Origin: Escherichia coli
GTDB taxonomy: Bacteria > Pseudomonadota > Gammaproteobacteria > Enterobacterales > Enterobacteriaceae
Assembly (NCBI RefSeq): GCF_050320075.1
Contig: NZ_CP190018.1
Strand: one strand, 5' to 3'
Length of the DNA: 64,000 nucleotides
Shown: positions 3,967 through 59,862 of the stretch, piece by piece
How the letters are laid out: the number at the start of each line of letters is the position of its first letter
How positions within the stretch are numbered: position 1 is the stretch's first letter
Translations under genes and position numbers: made by a program
The notes under the pieces: model-generated
Seen by the model: the letters and a program-made list of their open reading frames with translations, nothing else
Told to the model about the DNA's origin: nothing
Database searches by the model: none

Positions 3967-4221
3967 ATGGAATGCCGTCCGGGTTGCGGGGCGTGTTGCA
4001 CTGCCCCTTCAATTTCCAGCCCTATTCCCGGTATGCCAGATGGCAAGCCCGCCAATACGCCCTGCATTCAGCTTGATGAACAGCAACGCTGTAAAATTTT
4101 CACCTCGCCACTGCGACCGAAAGTTTGTGCGGGCTTACAAGCCAGCGCTGAAATGTGCGGTAACTCGCGTCAGCAGGCAATGACCTGGCTTATCGATCTG
4201 GAAATGCTGACCGCGCCTTAA
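3967..4221 (+). CDS. yeiW: Cysteine-cluster protein YeiW (UPF0153)
   Basis: 84-aa protein [22 protein letters not shown]... inside the 128-aa ORF; Cys-rich. Confidence 0.8.
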
Positions 4222-5399
4222 ACATCTTTAATCCGCAGTAAGCAAAACAGAGTGGCGATAATCATCACCATCGCAAACCAGAACACAGCGTGATAATTCC
4301 AGATCTCGGCGACGATGCCCGCCACTGATCCTGCGATGATCCAGCCCACGCGCGAAGTGTTGGTATAGAGCGTGGTGGCTGAACCTGCCTGACCGGGCAT
4401 CAAATCCTGAAAATAGAGCATCCCGATGCCGCCCAGAATGCCAATAAAAATAGCATTAAGCAGCTGCAAGCCCAACAGAATGACAGGTGAATGCGCCATC
4501 AGCATTCCTGCGTAAAAACAGACGCCACCCACGGCAGCAACGCGCATTAAGAAACGCTTACCCAAACGTTTGGCGAAATATCCGGCAATCAACATGGTCG
4601 GGATTTCCAGCCCGGCGGCGGTCCCCATCATCACACCGGCCAGTTTCTCGGGAAGATGCAGTTCGTTGATAATAAATAGCGGCATGTTGATGATGTACAG
4701 GCTGTTCGAGCCCCACATCAATGTACAAATGACAAACAGCAGCAGCGTATCGCGACGGTTACGGCGCGGCGCTTCAACCGTGCCGGTCGCCAGTGGAAGT
4801 TCTTTTTGCATCGACGGTAAAAACAGCCACACCATCACACCGCAAACAATAAACGCTACCGCTGCGCTCAGATACATTACCGTAAAGCTGAAACCCATCG
4901 CTAAGGCATAAGCCAGCGGCGGGCCAATGACCCATGCCAGTGAAACCTGAGCGCGTAAAAAAGAGCTGAACATCACCGCTTCACGTCCGGTTTTGTCAGC
5001 ATGTTCACGGGCGAGGGCAAACATTTGCGGGTTAGCAGTCGAGCCAAAGCTGCTAAGAAAGACGCCAACGAATAGCAAAACAAAGTAGTTGCGATTCCAG
5101 GCAAAAAGAGTGCAGGCCAGCACGCCTAACAGGCAGCAAAAGACAATCAGCGATTTGCGATCGCCGCGCTTATCAGAGCGCCCGGCGAGAAACTGACTTA
5201 CCAGAATCCCAATGACAGCGCTGCCGGTAAAGAAGAATCCCACCATCGCCGGGCGGGCATGTACTTCATCAGTAAGAAAAATACTGAGTGTCGGGGTTTG
5301 TAGAGCGCCCGCAATACCGGTGAGAAAGGCAACGATTAAAAACGCCATCGAGGTCAGGTCAAACGATTTCGCGCTGGAGACTGCGGGGGAGTTATGCAT
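4218..5399 (-). CDS. setB: Sugar efflux transporter SetB (MFS)
   Basis: 393-aa multi-TM ORF; synteny next to fruB. Confidence 0.9.
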
Positions 5400-5665
5400 G
5401 CTGGTCGATCACTGGAAGAGGAAGACGCGGAGTTTACGCTGCTTGTCAGAAAATAAACAGACAGCGAAATCAAAAGCGCCACGAATAATCAAAATGCCAT
5501 TTCACTGTTGCTGATTGGCTGCTGACGCTGCTGAAATGAAATTGCTGATAACGGATTTTCCCATCAGCAATTAGGAAAAATGACAAAAAATTGTGCAGCA
5601 CATCAAACTTTTGCTCATAACTTTACGGCTTTCCTTGCGTGCTGAAACAGAAGTATTATGCTTTC

Positions 5666-6897: not shown

Positions 6898-7835
6898 TGA
6901 GCAGACGTGTTGCTACTATCACCCTTAATCCGGCTTATGACCTTGTTGGTTTCTGCCCGGAAATTGAACGCGGCGAAGTGAACCTGGTGAAAACCACCGG
7001 TCTGCATGCGGCGGGTAAAGGCATCAACGTGGCCAAAGTGTTAAAAGACCTGGGAATTGATGTCACTGTTGGCGGCTTCCTCGGTAAAGACAATCAGGAT
7101 GGTTTTCAGCAACTGTTCAGCGAGCTGGGCATTGCCAACCGTTTCCAGGTTGTACAGGGGCGCACCCGAATTAACGTTAAGCTGACGGAAAAAGACGGCG
7201 AAGTGACCGACTTCAACTTCTCGGGTTTTGAAGTCACTCCCGCCGACTGGGAACGCTTTGTGACTGATTCTCTGAGCTGTCTCGGTCAGTTCGATATGGT
7301 CTGTGTCAGCGGAAGCTTACCGTCAGGCGTCAGCCCGGAAGCGTTCACCGACTGGATGACTCGCCTGCGTAGTCAGTGTCCTTGCATTATCTTTGATAGT
7401 AGCCGTGAAGCGTTAGTAGCAGGTTTGAAAGCGGCACCGTGGCTGGTGAAACCTAACCGCCGCGAGCTGGAAATCTGGGCAGGCCGTAAACTGCCTGAAA
7501 TGAAAGATGTGATTGAAGCTGCACATGCGCTACGTGAACAAGGTATCGCGCATGTCGTTATTTCACTGGGTGCCGAAGGCGCGCTTTGGGTTAATGCCTC
7601 CGGCGAATGGATCGCCAAACCACCGTCAGTCGATGTCGTAAGCACCGTTGGCGCAGGGGATTCTATGGTTGGTGGCCTGATTTATGGCTTGCTGATGCGT
7701 GAATCCAGTGAACACACACTGCGTCTGGCGACAGCTGTTGCAGCCCTGGCGGTAAGTCAAAGCAATGTGGGTATTACCGATCGTCCGCAGTTGGCCGCAA
7801 TGATGGCGCGCGTCGACTTACAACCTTTTAACTGA
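6897..7835 (+). CDS. fruK: 1-phosphofructokinase FruK
   Basis: 312-aa ORF; PfkB-family GAGDSMVGG motif. Confidence 0.93.
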   Translation: MSRRVATITLNPAYDLVGFCPEIERGEVNLVKTTGLHAAGKGINVAKVLKDLGIDVTVGGFLGKDNQDGFQQLFSELGIANRFQVVQGRTRINVKLTEKDGEVTDFNFSGFEVTPADWERFVTDSLSCLGQFDMVCVSGSLPSGVSPEAFTDWMTRLRSQCPCIIFDSSREALVAGLKAAPWLVKPNRRELEIWAGRKLPEMKDVIEAAHALREQGIAHVVISLGAEGALWVNASGEWIAKPPSVDVVSTVGAGDSMVGGLIYGLLMRESSEHTLRLATAVAALAVSQSNVGITDRPQLAAMMARVDLQPFN

Positions 7836-9727: not shown

Positions 9728-9810
9728 GTGTTCCTGTTCTGTGCATCCCGTCACAGGTGATGCTGCCAACTTACTGATTTAGTGTATGATGGTGTTTTTG
9801 AGGTGCTCCA

Positions 9811-10086
9811 GTGGCTTCTGTTTCTATCAGCTGTCCCTCCTGTTCAGCTACTGACGGGGTGGTGCGTAACGGCAAAAGCACCGCCGGACATCAGCGCTAT
9901 CTCTGCTCTCACTGCCGTAAAACATGGCAACTGCAGTTCACTTACACCGCTTCTCAACCCGGTACGCACCAGAAAATCATTGATATGGCCATGAATGGCG
10001 TTGGATGCCGGGCAACTGCCCGCATTATGGGCGTTGGCCTCAACACGATTTTCCGCCATTTAAAAAACTCAGGCCGCAGTCGGTAA
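9811..10086 (+). CDS. insA: IS1 InsA
   Basis: 91-aa [30 protein letters not shown]... Confidence 0.95.
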
Positions 10087-10508
10087 CCTCGCGCATACAG
10101 CCGGGCAGTGACGTCATCGTCTGCGCGGAAATGGACGAACAGTGGGGATACGTCGGGGCTAAATCGCGCCAGCGCTGGCTGTTTTACGCGTATGACAGGC
10201 TCCGGAAGACGGTTGTTGCGCACGTATTCGGTGAACGCACTATGGCGACGCTGGGGCGTCTTATGAGCCTGCTGTCACCCTTTGACGTGGTGATATGGAT
10301 GACGGATGGCTGGCCGCTGTATGAATCCCGCCTGAAGGGAAAGCTGCACGTAATCAGCAAGCGATATACGCAGCGAATTGAGCGGCATAACCTGAATCTG
10401 AGGCAGCACCTGGCACGGCTGGGACGGAAGTCGCTGTCGTTCTCAAAATCGGTGGAGCTGCATGACAAAGTCATCGGGCATTATCTGAACATAAAACACT
10501 ATCAATAA
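10005..10508 (+). CDS. insB: IS1 InsB (made as InsAB' by -1 frameshift at the A6C motif at 10063-10069)
   Basis: 167-aa ORF overlapping insA; AAAAAAC slippery site present. Confidence 0.93.
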
Positions 10509-10523
10509 GTTGGAGTCATTACC

Positions 10524-18570: not shown

Positions 18571-18616
18571 ATTCCATTTCCCTGACAAATCATGCGGATA
18601 TAAAATTTAACATTTG

Positions 18617-18648
18617 GATTGATAATTGTTATCGTTTGCATTATCGTT
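18617..18648. promoter_or_regulatory. Candidate Fur box(es) in the cirA promoter
   Basis: gattgataattgttatcgtttgcattatcg resembles the GATAATGATAATCATTATC iron box; cirA is a classical Fur target. Confidence 0.55.
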
Positions 18649-20193
18649 ACGCCGCAATCAAAAAAGGCTGACAAATCAGAGGCTGTTCCGGCTTTCTGGG
18701 ATGATCACCTGCATACAAATAAGTCCACCGCGATGCTGCCGTACGCAAGGGGACATGAAGAAGATGTGAGCGATAACCCATTTTATTTTCGTAGTTACCT
18801 CATGGAGATATGGAATGTTTAGGTTGAACCCTTTCGTACGGGTCGGGCTGTGTTTGTCCGCTATTTCTTGTGCATGGCCTGTGTTAGCGGTCGATGATGA
18901 TGGCGAAACGATGGTTGTCACTGCATCTTCCGTTGAGCAAAACCTTAAAGATGCACCCGCCAGTATCAGCGTCATTACCCAGGAAGACCTGCAGCGAAAA
19001 CCGGTACAGAATCTGAAGGATGTCCTCAAAGAAGTGCCTGGCGTACAACTGACGAACGAAGGGGATAACCGTAAGGGCGTTAGTATTCGTGGTCTGGGCA
19101 GCAGCTACACCCTGATTCTCGTCGACGGTAAACGCGTTAACTCCCGCAATGCCGTCTTCCGCCACAATGATTTCGATCTGAACTGGATCCCGGTCGATTC
19201 CATCGAACGTATTGAAGTGGTCCGTGGCCCGATGTCGTCGCTGTACGGTTCCGATGCGCTCGGCGGTGTAGTGAATATCATCACCAAAAAAATCGGTCAG
19301 AAATGGTCGGGTACCGTTACCGTCGATACCACCATTCAGGAACATCGCGATCGCGGTGATACCTATAACGGTCAGTTCTTTACCAGCGGACCATTAATTG
19401 ACGGCGTGCTGGGAATGAAAGCTTACGGCAGCCTGGCAAAACGTGAAAAGGATGACCCGCAAAACTCAACGACCACCGATACCGGAGAAACGCCGCGTAT
19501 TGAAGGATTCTCCAGCCGCGACGGCAATGTGGAATTTGCCTGGACACCGAATCAAAATCACGATTTTACTGCCGGATACGGTTTCGACCGTCAGGATCGT
19601 GATTCCGACTCGCTGGACAAAAACCGCCTGGAACGCCAGAACTACTCCGTCAGCCATAATGGGCGTTGGGATTACGGCACCAGCGAACTGAAATACTACG
19701 GTGAGAAAGTCGAGAACAAAAACCCTGGCAACAGCAGCCCGATAACTTCCGAAAGCAATACGGTCGACGGCAAATACACGTTGCCGCTGACGGCGATTAA
19801 TCAGTTTCTCACGGTTGGCGGTGAATGGCGTCACGACAAACTTAGCGATGCGGTGAACCTGACCGGGGGAACCAGTTCCAAAACGTCTGCCAGCCAGTAC
19901 GCGCTGTTTGTGGAAGATGAATGGCGGATCTTCGAGCCGCTGGCGCTGACGACCGGCGTACGTATGGACGATCATGAAACCTACGGTGAACACTGGAGTC
20001 CGCGTGCCTACCTGGTTTATAACGCCACCGACACCGTAACGGTGAAAGGGGGCTGGGCGACGGCATTTAAAGCACCTTCTCTGTTGCAACTTAGCCCTGA
20101 CTGGACGAGCAATTCCTGCCGTGGCGCATGTAAGATTGTGGGTAGCCCGGATCTGAAACCAGAAACCTGTACTGACCCCAAAAAGTTGGACAG

Positions 20194-21084
20194 TTAAACA
20201 CGAGGCATATAGGTCTGATTCCGATATTCAATTGGAGTCAGACCTTTTAATTTCAGGCTAATTCTTCTGCTGTTGTAGTATTCAATATATTCCGTAACAG
20301 CATCCTTCAGTTCGCTTATATTACTGAACTCATCAAGATAAAAACACTCCGACTTTAAGGTTCCAAAGAAACACTCCACCACAGCATTATCCAGACAATT
20401 GCCTTTTCTGGACATGCTTTGTTTAATACCATGTTCTTTAAGGATATTTTGATATCTTCTCATACGATACTGCCATCCCTGGTCAGAGTGCAGAACAGGA
20501 TGCTCGTGAGGATTAAGCTTTTTGAATGCCTGATCGAGCATATTCTCAACCATGTTCATCACTGGTCTTTCCGAAAGGCTGTAAGAAATAACTTCGTTGT
20601 TGAAGAGATCTATTACTGGAGACAAATACAGCTTGCGCCCATTGACTACAAATTCAGTAACATCGGTAACCCACTTCTCGTTTGGCCGCGTAGCCTTGAA
20701 ATCTCTTTGGAGAACATTAGGGGCGGTTTGCCCTACCTCTCCTCTGTAAGAGCGGTATCGCTTGACCTTAATCGCTGCTTTAAGTGAGAGGGTTCCCATC
20801 AGGCGCTGAACAGCTTTATGGTTAATCTGTTTCCCTTCTCGATGAAGAGACAGCGTTACCCTACGGTATCCGTATCGGCCTCTATTCTCGTGATAAATCT
20901 CACCAATACGCTTTTTAACGTCCGCATACTTGTCAGGCTTGCTGAGAGCCTTTAGATGGTAATAAAACGTACTGCGCGGTATCTCCGCAGCCCTGAGAAG
21001 CTCATCAAGAGGATAAAACTGCCTTAGCTCGTTGAGTACTTTTACTTTTTCGTGGGATGAGCTAAGGCTTTCAGCTTTTTTAGA
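20194..21084 (-). CDS. insK: IS150 OrfB (InsK) transposase catalytic part, expressed as OrfAB by -1 frameshift
   Basis: Frame open from the A AAA AAG slippery site near 21079-21085 to the stop at 20194; no own start codon in that frame upstream of 20799. Confidence 0.85.
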
Positions 21085-21563
21085 TACATAAGCCGCGTTT
21101 CAAGAAATCGAACTTGCCTTTCAAGATCCTCAATGCGTCGGTCTTTTGACAGCTCCAATGCTGATGCCGCTTTTTCTGGATCAACTGATATTGCAATGTT
21201 TCTTTTGGTGCCAATCTTGAGCGCGCGTAAACCAGCTTCTCCGCGCTCTTCATAGACCTTCAGCCACCTGGCTACAGAACCACTACCAGCAAGCATAAAG
21301 TGAGCAGCAGCCTGATTAAGGGACATGTGCTGCTCGATCACAGCTTTCACGACCTTAATACGCAACTCTGGATCAGCACTAACGCCTTTAGGTTTGGGAA
21401 TTAAACCTTTTTCTCCATGTTTTTCATAGAGGGCAACCCATGTCCTGACCTGGGTTCGGGGGACACCAAAACGTGCCGAGATGATCCTGTAACCATCATC
21501 AGTTGTGAAGTAGTGATTCACGACTTCAAGGCGCTTTTCAAAAGGGTATTTTGGCTTTGACAT
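21042..21563 (-). CDS. insJ: IS150 OrfA (InsJ)
   Basis: 173-aa MSKPKYPFEKRLEVVNHYF... ending ...[13 protein letters not shown]. Confidence 0.92.
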   Translation of the reverse strand: MSKPKYPFEKRLEVVNHYFTTDDGYRIISARFGVPRTQVRTWVALYEKHGEKGLIPKPKGVSADPELRIKVVKAVIEQHMSLNQAAAHFMLAGSGSVARWLKVYEERGEAGLRALKIGTKRNIAISVDPEKAASALELSKDRRIEDLERQVRFLETRLMYLKKLKALAHPTKK

Positions 21564-22271
21564 ATTAGGGGCTATTCCATTTCATCGTCCAACAAAATGG
21601 GTGCAGTACAACCAGCGAAAGTTGGGAACTGGGGCTTTACTACATGGGCGAAGACGGCTGGCTGGAAGGGGTAGAGTCCAGCGTTACCGTTTTCCGTAAC
21701 GATGTGAAAGATCGCATCAGCATCAGCCGTACGTCTGACGTCAATGCTGCACCGGGCTACCAAAACTTTGTTGGTTTTACAGCGAACGGTGTGCCGGTAT
21801 TTAGCTACTACAACGTTAACAAAGCTCGTATTCAGGGCGTGGAAACCGAACTGAAAATTCCGTTCAACGATGAATGGAAACTGTCGATCAACTACACCTA
21901 CAACGATGGTCGTGATGTCAGCAACGGCGAAAACAAACCGCTATCCGATCTGCCGTTCCATACTGCTAACGGTACGCTGGACTGGAAACCGCTGGCGCTG
22001 GAAGACTGGTCATTCTATGTTTCTGGTCACTATACCGGGCAGAAACGAGCCGACAGCGCGACGGCTAAAACACCGGGCGGTTATACCATCTGGAATACCG
22101 GCGCGGCCTGGCAGGTGACTAAAGACGTCAAACTGCGCGCAGGCGTGCTGAACCTTGGCGACAAGGATCTCAGTCGTGACGACTACAGCTATAACGAAGA
22201 CGGACGTCGTTACTTTATGGCAGTGGATTATCGCTTCTGATGAGAAGATGCCCGGCGAACCGGGCGGACTT

Positions 22272-33045: not shown

Positions 33046-33293
33046 AATTATTTAGAGTATAAATATTGCGTGCTGATATTAAGGCTATGCGCGTGGGGAA
33101 ATTTAAACTGTGAAAGGATTCACAAATAGCTGTGGTTCAGAATGTTATATCCGCAGCTTATTGAGTGAAGTAATAATTATTCTCAATAATTAACAGAAAA
33201 GAGAAAATATTAACGATAGAAAATAAGATAAACAATCAGGTAATGGTGCCAACTTACTGATTTAGTGTATGATGGTGTTTTTGAGGTGCTCCC

Positions 33294-33569
33294 GTGGCTT
33301 CCATCTCCATCAGTTGTCCCTCCTGCTCAGCTACTGAAGGCGTGGTGCGTAACGGTAAAAGTACTGCCGGACATCAGCGCTATCTCTGCTCTCACTGCCG
33401 TAAAACATGGCAACTGCAGTTCACTTACACCGCTTCTCAACCCGGTACACACCAGAAAATCATTGATATGGCCATGAATGGTGTTGGATGCCGGGCAACC
33501 GCCCGCATTATGGGCGTTGGCCTCAACACGATTTTACGTCACTTAAAAAACTCAGGCCGCAGTCGGTAA
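33294..33569 (+). CDS. insA: IS1 InsA (variant)
   Basis: 91-aa [21 protein letters not shown]...; 3 substitutions relative to the copy at 9811. Confidence 0.95.
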
Positions 33570-33991
33570 CCTCGCGCATACAGCCGGGCAGTGATGTGAT
33601 TGTCTGCGCTGAAATGGACGAACAGTGGGGCTACGTCGGTGCTAAATCACGTCAGCGCTGGCTGTTTTACGCGTATGACAGGATACGGAGGACGGTTGTG
33701 GCGCACGTCTTCGGTGAACGCACTCTGGCCACACTGGAGCGTCTTCTGAGCCTGCTGTCGGCCTTTGAGGTCGTGGTATGGATGACGGATGGCTGGCCGC
33801 TGTATGAATCCCGCCTGAAGGGAAAGCTGCACGTAATCAGCAAGCGTTACACTCAGCGCATTGAGCGACATAACCTGAATCTGAGACAACATCTGGCAAG
33901 GCTGGGACGGAAGTCACTGTCGTTCTCAAAATCGGTGGAGCTGCATGACAAAGTCATCGGGCATTATCTGAACATAAAACACTATCAGTAA
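33488..33991 (+). CDS. insB: IS1 InsB (variant)
   Basis: 167-aa ORF; about 12 substitutions relative to the copy at 10005. Confidence 0.93.
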
Positions 33992-34001
33992 GTTGGAGTC
34001 A

Positions 34002-35982
<1,981 letters not shown>

Positions 35983-37440: not shown

Positions 37441-38388
37441 ATGCGTGTGTTATTGGCACCGATGGAGGGAGTGCTTGACTCTCTGGTGCGTGAATTGCTG
37501 ACCGAAGTTAACGACTACGATCTGTGCATCACCGAGTTTGTCCGCGTGGTGGATCAACTGCTGCCGGTAAAAGTCTTTCATCGCATTTGCCCTGAGCTAC
37601 AAAACGCCAGCCGGACACCATCTGGTACGCTGGTGCGCGTGCAGTTGTTAGGTCAGTTCCCACAATGGCTGGCAGAGAACGCCGCCCGTGCGGTGGAGTT
37701 AGGTTCCTGGGGCGTGGATCTCAATTGCGGCTGCCCGTCGAAAACGGTTAACGGTAGCGGCGGCGGGGCGACGTTACTCAAAGATCCTGAACTCATCTAC
37801 CAGGGTGCAAAAGCGATGCGTGAAGCTGTACCGGCGCATTTGCCCGTCAGCGTGAAAGTGCGTCTGGGCTGGGACAGCGGTGAGAAGAAATTTGAAATCG
37901 CCGATGCGGTTCAACAGGCTGGCGCTACGGAGCTGGTGGTGCATGGGCGGACGAAAGAGCAGGGTTACCGCGCGGAGCATATTGACTGGCAGGCGATTGG
38001 CGATATTCGCCAGCGGCTGAATATTCCGGTGATTGCCAACGGTGAAATCTGGGACTGGCAGAGCGCGCAACAATGCATGGCGATCAGCGGCTGCGACGCA
38101 GTGATGATTGGTCGCGGGGCGCTCAATATTCCCAACCTGAGCCGGGTGGTAAAATATAACGAACCGCGAATGCCGTGGCCGGAGGTGGTTGCTTTGCTGC
38201 AAAAATATACCCGTCTGGAAAAGCAGGGCGATACCGGGTTATATCACGTTGCGCGGATTAAACAGTGGTTGAGTTATTTGCGTAAAGAATACGATGAAGC
38301 AACGGAATTATTTCAGCATGTTCGGGTGTTGAATAATTCCCCTGATATTGCAAGGGCTATTCAGGCAATTGATATCGAGAAACTCTAA
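37441..38388 (+). CDS. dusC: tRNA-dihydrouridine synthase C
   Basis: 315-aa protein from ATG at 37441 ([14 protein letters not shown]...); TIM-barrel Dus motifs. Confidence 0.92.
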
Positions 38389-58729: not shown

Positions 58730-59862
58730 GACTGAAGATTCTCCGCAAGCCATGATGCCAGCTCGCCCGGTGTCATGGCGGCTATTTGTGCGCCGACATT
58801 AACCAGCGCCTGGGCCGTATCGTGGTCATAGCAAGGTGTTGCGGTGCTATCGAGCGCCGCCAGTCCCAGCACTTTGATGCCGCTCTGGACACACTTTTTC
58901 ACCTGATGCGTCAGTAATGATGATGAACCCCCTTCGTAAAAATCGCTCACGAGGATAATGACGCTTTTCGCTGGTTGTTCAATAAGTTGCCGACCATATT
59001 CCATGGCACTGGCGATATTGGTTCCGCCGCCTAATTGCACTTTCATTAATAACTCTACCGGATCGGCAACGTCTGCCGTGAGATCAACCACGCTGGTGTC
59101 AAACGCCACCAGATGGGTACGAATACCGGGTAACTGCCATAAACAGGCCGCCATCACCGCTGAGTGGATCACCGAGTCAACCATCGATCCGCTTTGATCA
59201 ACCAGTAAGACCAGTTGCCATTGATCGCTATGGCGCTTAATGCGGCTGTTAAAGCGGGGGGATTCGATATACAACTTGCCGTGTTGCGGATGCCAGTGTT
59301 GCAGGTTGGCACGCAGCGTACTTTTGAAATCGAAATTACGCGCCAGTGGAATAAATGAGCGACGGCGGCGATCGCGGACACCAGAAAAAGCCTGGCGAAC
59401 TTCCTTTGCCAGTCGCGCCATAATCTCTTCAACAACCTGGCGCACTATCCGGCGAGCGGCAGCCAGCACTTCGGGATTCATCAGATGTTTGGTGTGCAAA
59501 ACGGCGCGTAGCAGGCTTTCAGAAGGCTGCATACGTTCCAGTACGTCGAGATTCGTCACCACATCTTCAATGCCATAGCGCAGCACGGCATCGCTTTCCA
59601 GCCGCTCGATCACCTGTTGCGGAAACAGCGTGTGAATACTGTTGATCCACTCAGGGGTGGTGAGATTTGAGCAACCTAATCCACCGGAGCGTTCACCACG
59701 CTGGAGCCGTTCAGGATCGCGCCCATACAGCCACTCCAGCGCGTGGTCTATCTGCCGGGCATTGTCATCCAGCCCACAAAGGGTCGTTTCTGCCGCTTCG
59801 CCAAGAATTAATCGCCAGCGTTGTAGCTCACGGGTGGTCAGAAGATCGTTCAGTTCAGACAT
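58726..59862 (-). CDS. yehP: von Willebrand factor A domain protein YehP
   Basis: 378-aa protein from ATG at 59862 (MSELNDLLTTRELQRW...); MIDAS motif DQSGS in LVLLVDQSGSM. Confidence 0.88.
   Translation of the reverse strand: MSELNDLLTTRELQRWRLILGEAAETTLCGLDDNARQIDHALEWLYGRDPERLQRGERSGGLGCSNLTTPEWINSIHTLFPQQVIERLESDAVLRYGIEDVVTNLDVLERMQPSESLLRAVLHTKHLMNPEVLAAARRIVRQVVEEIMARLAKEVRQAFSGVRDRRRRSFIPLARNFDFKSTLRANLQHWHPQHGKLYIESPRFNSRIKRHSDQWQLVLLVDQSGSMVDSVIHSAVMAACLWQLPGIRTHLVAFDTSVVDLTADVADPVELLMKVQLGGGTNIASAMEYGRQLIEQPAKSVIILVSDFYEGGSSSLLTHQVKKCVQSGIKVLGLAALDSTATPCYDHDTAQALVNVGAQIAAMTPGELASWLAENLQS

Follow-up and report, generated by a model that had tools for sequence, protein, structure and literature searches.

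The outer-membrane receptor CirA of Escherichia coli, a 22-strand barrel encoded by a Fur-regulated gene, is an entry route for colicins Ia and Ib, for several microcins and for catechol-siderophore antibiotics (e.g., cefiderocol). Its loss has repeatedly been reported in resistant clinical isolates. Among insertion sequences (IS), IS911 of the IS3 family is known to insert beside end-like sequences. The target of IS186 has been described as GGGG-N6/7-CCCC (PMC5009759). For IS150, hot spots are known at trg/mokB, hokC/nhaA, insA-7/hokE and chaA/ldrC from evolution experiments with E. coli B and from mutation-accumulation lines (PMC5289635, PMC5419217). Loss-of-function alleles of cirA, including frameshifts, truncations and IS or transposon insertions, have been found in cefiderocol-non-susceptible Enterobacterales (e.g., PMC10319620), and TnMB1860 was reported in cirA of the sequence type 131 (ST131) strain p4A (PMC10591226). 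Here, we analyzed a stretch of 64,000 nucleotides from E. coli contig NZ_CP190018.1 (assembly GCF_050320075.1), hereafter called the window, in which a copy of IS150 interrupts cirA. The initial annotation of this stretch treated the insertion as a one-off. Our comparisons place it instead in a site-specific hotspot, nucleotides 1350-1354 of cirA, which IS150 has entered many times over, in independent events and in E. coli lineages unrelated to one another.

In the window, IS150 is a complete element of 1,443 bp (positions 20168 to 21610, minus strand, opposite to cirA), bordered by two copies of a perfect 3-bp target duplication, ACC, at 20165-20167 (plus strand; codon 451 of cirA, Thr) and at 21611-21613 (plus strand). 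The 5' fragment of cirA (18815-20167, plus strand) holds codons 1-451, which encode the signal peptide, the plug and the first part of the barrel. The 3' fragment (21614-22240, plus strand) holds codons 452-659 and the stop codon in the same frame, and RefSeq describes it as 'TonB-dependent receptor domain-containing protein, missing N-terminus'. Removal of IS150 and one ACC yields a single open cirA frame of 659 amino acids, and nucleotides 1-1982 of this restored sequence align with intact cirA of other strains (e.g., Ec-U3 and CFSAN061763) as a single piece at 100% identity. The initial annotation had read positions 20165-21613 as a complete 1443-bp IS150 with a perfect ACC duplication, inserted at about codon 451 between same-frame flanks that join exactly, and had concluded that a simple insertion inactivated an otherwise intact gene; all of this was confirmed.

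The interrupted open reading frame (ORF) encodes 460 amino acids, ending in DLKPET followed by nine IS-derived residues (CTDPKKLDS) and a stop codon. This split product matches the CirA equivalog NF007478 at positions 1-452 of 663 only (1011.8 bits, for a cut-off of 745), and it is without about 208 C-terminal barrel residues, the Pfam barrel domain extending over residues 221-632. The restored protein has Plug and TonB_dep_Rec domains and matches the solved 'Colicin I receptor' (2HDF/2HDI, E = 0). A full-length cirA ORF with a complete barrel is absent from the locus, which is accordingly a pseudogene. The cirA::IS150 allele is thus a null allele, the ORF being cut after codon 451 and the last ~208 barrel residues lying 1.4 kb away. 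Judging from the domain map and from general knowledge of outer-membrane barrel assembly, a functional receptor would not be expected from the split gene, whose product is without the C-terminal third of the barrel. By itself, the insertion in the window is an ordinary pseudogene that was already annotated: in the RefSeq record of strain YZLc1-3, the locus reads as a cirA pseudogene, an IS150 transposase and a pseudogene for a TonB-dependent receptor fragment.

A first megablast search found 15 genomes with IS150 in cirA. A census of 5,426 complete E. coli genomes, using the restored cirA joined to IS150 in each orientation as query, returned the same 15 genomes and one additional genome with the opposite orientation (isolate 602, Madrid). 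All 16 copies lie inside the five base pairs AACCA, and 15 of them share one orientation. They occupy three insertion points one base apart, which generate the staggered duplications AAC (ST131-type haplotype and VTB96816v), ACC (the window, XJW9B277, DETEC-E223 and G5) and CCA (AZ 191 in the predominant orientation and isolate 602 in the opposite one). Hence, four geometrically distinct alleles are present: AAC, ACC and CCA one way, and CCA the other. Between the distinct haplotypes of the restored 12.5-kb loci there are 91-194 differences, the cirA alleles of the carriers vary within 15 bp of the junction, and the IS150 copies vary by 1-5 nt between carriers.

Draft and Logan contigs were added by exact look-up of the truncated CirA products, which brought the total to 31 loci, grouped into nine upstream-haplotype clusters and 12 haplotype-by-position combinations, ST131 included. 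By duplication, six clusters had ACC, four AAC and two CCA, with an orientation ratio of 11:1 by event. Two different insertion positions were present inside a single haplotype on three occasions (haplotypes B, C and D). The carriers were obtained from chicken, cattle, water, stool, blood and urine, and the ST131-type allele was seen in the USA, New Zealand, Switzerland, Egypt and Thailand. The ST131-type carriers form two groups separated by one single-nucleotide polymorphism (SNP) at position 778 of the cirA-resident IS150. The single CCA-type strain, AZ 191, shares the position-778 SNP with one of these groups, which hints at several separate ST131 insertions.

Dating by related strains, as proposed in the initial annotation, indicates that the insertion in the window is a recent event, since its flanks are identical to those of a relative with an empty site. 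In Ec-U3, the nearest other genome, the 25-kb surroundings are 100.0% identical, the record span is exactly 1,446 bp shorter and cirA is uninterrupted. The RefSeq record of YZLc1-3 (NZ_CP123240.1; chicken faeces, Yangzhou) is identical to the window over 14 kb at the cirA locus.

AGCCC-N15-AACCA-N15-TGGGGCT is a dyad with the hotspot at its centre. In the window, the left arm, AGCCC (20144-20148, plus strand), stands 15 nt upstream of the hotspot and the right arm, TGGGGCT (21630-21636, plus strand), 15 nt downstream. AACCA is also the end of the second copy of a tandem heptamer, GAAACCA-GAAACC(A), located at 20155-20167 (plus strand), with its last A at position 21614. We compared this site with 13 other IS150 loci in public genomes (hokA, hokB/trg, hokE, chaA/ldr, iroN and eight others), each read with the left terminal inverted repeat (IRL) of the element on the left. 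RGGC started 2 nt after the duplication in nine of the 13 sites (background 0.75%, P = 5e-17), and in seven, on the IRL side, GCCY ended 13-20 nt ahead of the duplication (background 5.9%, P = 3e-6). In cirA, read in the predominant orientation, AAAGCCCCA precedes the duplication by 15-17 nt, with the same geometry as at hokA, hokB and hokE. Moreover, a matrix built from the 13 other sites had its top match within cirA ±300 bp at TGGGGCT, 15 nt from the hotspot, and we roughly estimate at ~0.016 the chance of a top match falling so near. The flank motifs resemble TGGGGTC and TGGGTGC, which are subterminal in the ends of IS150 itself. An 8-mer shared by the right flank and the right terminal inverted repeat (IRR), AAAGTTGG, was considered as a case of end mimicry and discarded, as its chance occurrence, allowing for how many comparisons were made, was roughly estimated at ~0.07 and it was absent from the other sites.

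Sequence-directed target capture is the most likely cause of the hotspot, to judge from these flanking motifs, which would explain it only in part. The IS150 transpososome may capture its target by sequence, the hotspot being midway between AGCCC and TGGGGCT. With GCCY towards the IRL and RGGC towards the IRR, the flanks would guide the insertion by mimicking the subterminal sequence of IS150, and the element would then enter cirA and produce a null allele. We suggest, tentatively, that GCCY and RGGC are recognized as mimics of the IS150 ends and that the near-perfect dyad in cirA could make CirA loss a high-rate, predictable event in IS150-carrying lineages, including ST131.

To compare the disruption of cirA with that of nearby genes, we searched 5,425 genomes with intact 1-kb queries taken from the central part of cirA (centred on the site), from its 5' part and from the equivalent parts of lysP and galS. 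The central kilobase of cirA was split in 32 genomes, 16 of them through IS150 at the hotspot, and the 5' kilobase was split in 16 genomes. The equivalent queries from lysP and galS were split in none of the 5,425 genomes. IS150 at the hotspot represents about one third of the large cirA disruptions, the other, non-IS150 ones amounting to ~32 genomes. Because large disruptions are frequent in cirA and absent from two neighbour genes, it seems that CirA loss meets with tolerance, or is even favoured, in nature. In strain U1 (NZ_CP041359.1), cirA aligned in two pieces with a record span ~35 bp longer than the query, suggesting a short insertion or duplication that would break the frame and represent another independent lesion.

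Taken together, we consider it very probable that the locus is explained by a null allele resulting from a recent IS150 insertion, at a hotspot, most likely through sequence-directed target capture, with the consequences expected of CirA loss. Several points weigh against this explanation or its parts. The matrix derived from the other sites ranked the true hotspot positions 114th to 1211th of 5,078, and a loose form of the dyad rule also fitted four other places in cirA that are without IS150. Unlike most other IS150 sites, cirA has no RGGC directly beside the duplication. The flank-motif rule was formulated post hoc and does not suffice for predicting sites, and the 13 comparison sites include three paralogous hok loci, which are hence not fully independent. 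JGI metagenome contigs, scanned for all three junction positions in both orientations, yielded no matches. The counts of split genes do not separate selection for CirA loss from mere tolerance of it. Finally, knocking out cirA by itself reportedly gave no increase in the cefiderocol minimum inhibitory concentration of ATCC 25922, and effects on this drug are described chiefly in combination with NDM, PBP3 or other changes (PMC10319620).

The hotspot could also be purely mutational, its cirA::IS150 alleles being neutral or slightly deleterious passengers. This would agree with the varied sources of the carriers, which have no obvious common exposure, and with mutation-accumulation lines, in which IS150 enters hok and ldr loci under minimal selection. 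However, the presence of the ST131-type allele on several continents indicates that it persists and spreads, and non-IS150 disruptions are likewise enriched in cirA compared with its neighbours. Cir-dependent bacteriocins are, moreover, common in enteric habitats. We therefore regard neutral passage as unlikely, though far from negligible.

It is very improbable that IS150 inserts randomly and that selection for CirA loss alone accounts for the recurrence at this site. The ~32 other large cirA disruptions, against none in lysP or galS, are consistent with selection, but selection for a null allele would be indifferent to position and orientation. Every one of the 16 IS150 copies in complete genomes and of the 31 loci maps to the same 5 bp of a gene of 1,980 bp, and orientation is biased 11:1 by event. 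Furthermore, no particular truncated product is selected, since the three positions give different C-terminal tails.

Similarly, we give very little credence to the spread of a single ancestral cirA::IS150 allele by homologous recombination, in which the recurrence would be only apparent. Haplotypes C and D have near-identical cirA genes (one SNP) within different outer flanks, so that an ACC allele could have been transferred between them. Nevertheless, the spread of one allele was rejected because recombination cannot convert the four geometrically distinct alleles into one another; it is contradicted by the three positions and two orientations and is largely refuted. In addition, insertions at one and the same position involve IS150 variants 4-5 nt apart and cirA alleles with a difference 15 bp away from the junction, and haplotypes B, C and D each include two positions. 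It is barely conceivable that the cirA insertion stems from misassembly, with an IS copy misplaced in a repeat-rich assembly: IS placement does vary between versions or isolates, one IS1 copy being placed differently in the window and in the YZLc1-3 record, but the 3-bp duplication is perfect, the flanks join exactly in frame, both sequences agree over 14 kb at cirA, 16 independent complete genomes share this junction type, and over 30 draft or Logan contigs run from cirA into an IS150 end.

Repeated, sequence-directed insertion of IS150 that inactivates cirA, the explanation we favour, has consequences for both phenotype and surveillance. Given the established receptor role of CirA, its loss should abolish killing by colicins Ia and Ib and by other Cir-dependent bacteriocins; resistance to these two colicins is predicted because CirA, the 'Colicin I receptor' of 2HDF/2HDI, is their receptor. 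From established knowledge, CirA loss should also contribute to reduced susceptibility to catechol-siderophore drugs, only in combination with other changes, a more cautious expectation than that of the initial annotation. Since a single IS produces about one third of the large cirA disruptions, always in the same 5 bp, CirA loss would be predictable and more readily reached in IS150-carrying clones. One junction k-mer, CCAGAAAC[-/C/CA]TGTACTG..., or one polymerase chain reaction (PCR) can screen for it, while short-read pipelines that call only SNPs and small insertions or deletions may miss cirA::IS150. If targeting is indeed guided by the motif, the hotspot would provide a built-in evolvability route to colicin and microcin resistance, as well as a stepping stone to cefiderocol resistance that may escape SNP-based short-read surveillance. 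The cirA site also offers a compact natural substrate for studying IS150 target choice.

The element itself has the expected organization of IS150, and megablast matches to it carry an IS150 annotation in thousands of genomes. The IRR (20168-20198, minus strand; TGTACTGACCCCAAAAAGTTGG...) and the IRL (21580-21610, minus strand; TGTACTGCACCCATTTTGTTGG...) are 31 nt long and 71% complementary; these imperfect repeats read TGTACTG...CAGTACA, the element starting and ending with TG...CA. Both reading frames are open. The first, orfA (21042-21563, minus strand; 173 amino acids), has a helix-turn-helix motif, Pfam HTH_28 being listed for an identical protein. The second, orfB (20194-21045, minus strand; 283 amino acids), has the DDE/rve catalytic domain, for which Pfam rve is known from orfB of other copies. 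An A-AAA-AAG slippery heptamer (21075-21081, minus strand) is predicted to join orfA and orfB by a -1 frameshift. In agreement, RefSeq gives the transposase as a join of two pieces tagged 'programmed frameshift' (IS3-like element IS150 family transposase), and orfA and orfB cover positions 1-89 and 92-369 of the NCBIfam transpos_IS3 profile, respectively, with 348.9 bits for orfB. The orfB product carries G48 and V133 in place of S48 and A133 of the common variant. The copy in the window differs at 4 of 1,443 positions from the K-12-type copy at glyS-hokA. While the target duplication is 3 bp here, it is 3-4 bp among other IS150 copies.

Outside the insertion, the cirA region resembles that of K-12. 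The gene order lysP-cirA-yeiG is as in MG1655, and the lysP-cirA intergenic region is identical to K-12 over its first 192 nt, the promoter-proximal part. This segment includes a Fur-box-like array (18615-18645, unstranded) of overlapping 13-14/19 matches to GATAATGATAATCATTATC. The promoter is thus intact, as the initial annotation had stated, and Fur binding is predicted. The best match to the Fur-box consensus in the whole window (15/19; GATAATGAGATTTATAATC) is elsewhere, at 63456-63474 between yehL and yehK. Compared with K-12, the restored CirA has the substitutions D95G and E465D and a loop shorter by four residues. The 12-bp-shorter loop segment lies at window positions 21800-21830 (codons ~506-513), where K-12 has FVGFETGANGRRIPV. 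This shorter-loop allele is widespread and intact elsewhere, with 242 genomes at least 99% identical over the central kilobase.

Away from cirA, the window and NZ_CP123240.1 differ by one SNP at position 7280 and in the location of IS1. In the window, an IS1 variant lies in the 3' end of yeiS (33240-34007), with a 9-bp duplication, AAACAATCA; it is 93% identical to another IS1 copy at 9756-10523. NZ_CP123240.1 has instead an IS1 adjoining dusC (record-equivalent positions 37581-38350). With these differences, the window represents either a sibling isolate or a different version of the assembly. The copy at 9756-10523 abuts a 5'-truncated rihB without a target duplication, suggesting an IS1-associated deletion. 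In the near-identical RefSeq record, the region corresponding to window positions ~59855-63222 has an internal stop in yehM and a frameshift in yehL, making two pseudogenes in the yehLMPQ cluster.

A second catecholate-siderophore receptor gene is also entered by IS150. The salmochelin receptor gene iroN carries the element in many E. coli genomes, and the duplication, AAC, directly abuts TGGGGCT. As in cirA, the target is a catecholate-siderophore receptor gene and the orientation of the element relative to the gene is the same. The iroN site is not homologous to the cirA site, being ~30 codons upstream in the alignment. An insertion at the homologous site had been considered, as the megablast alignments ran 28 nt into the cirA flank, and was dismissed when the junction was read: the position is another one and the similarity fortuitous. 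At the IS150 locus of E. coli AREA_499 (4030-5472), iroN lacks its 5' part, and iroE and iroC are pseudogenes as well.

We found no report of an IS150 hotspot in cirA or of a flank consensus for IS150 in the searchable literature, older subscription papers lying outside it, and the IS papers from the Long-Term Evolution Experiment give no IS150 target consensus. What is new here is the recurrent 5-bp hotspot in cirA, while IS150 hot spots in laboratory evolution and loss alleles of cirA were known already. The cefiderocol-linked cirA lesions affect the same gene and also truncate CirA. However, they are heterogeneous in position and type, whereas the insertions described here involve a single element at one 5-bp site. 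With IS186 and IS911, IS150 shares a G/C-rich, dyad-like flank motif at the insertion point that resembles the subterminal sequence of the element itself. Compared with those of IS186 and IS911, the IS150 motif is shorter and more degenerate, its spacing varies (adjacent or ~15-17 nt away), and it is not predictive alone. The hok and ldr loci offer another parallel. Natural genomes repeatedly carry IS150 just upstream of hokA, hokB and hokE and beside ldr toxin genes, between the arms of an AGCCCCA...TGRGGCT inverted repeat, at the same loci as the laboratory hot spots. The two IS150 hot spots at hokC in REL606 (16,972 and 16,989; PMC5419217) abut CGAGGCC and CGGGGCT. As in cirA, the laboratory hot spots involve the same element and identical insertions that recur in independent lineages, and the natural hokA, hokB and hokE sites share with cirA the AGCCCC-N15-18-duplication geometry. 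The hok and ldr sites are intergenic with RGGC right after the duplication, whereas the cirA site lies in coding sequence, at the centre of a wider dyad. Moreover, while the laboratory hot spots were described in one laboratory strain, the cirA hotspot is found in natural isolates of many lineages.

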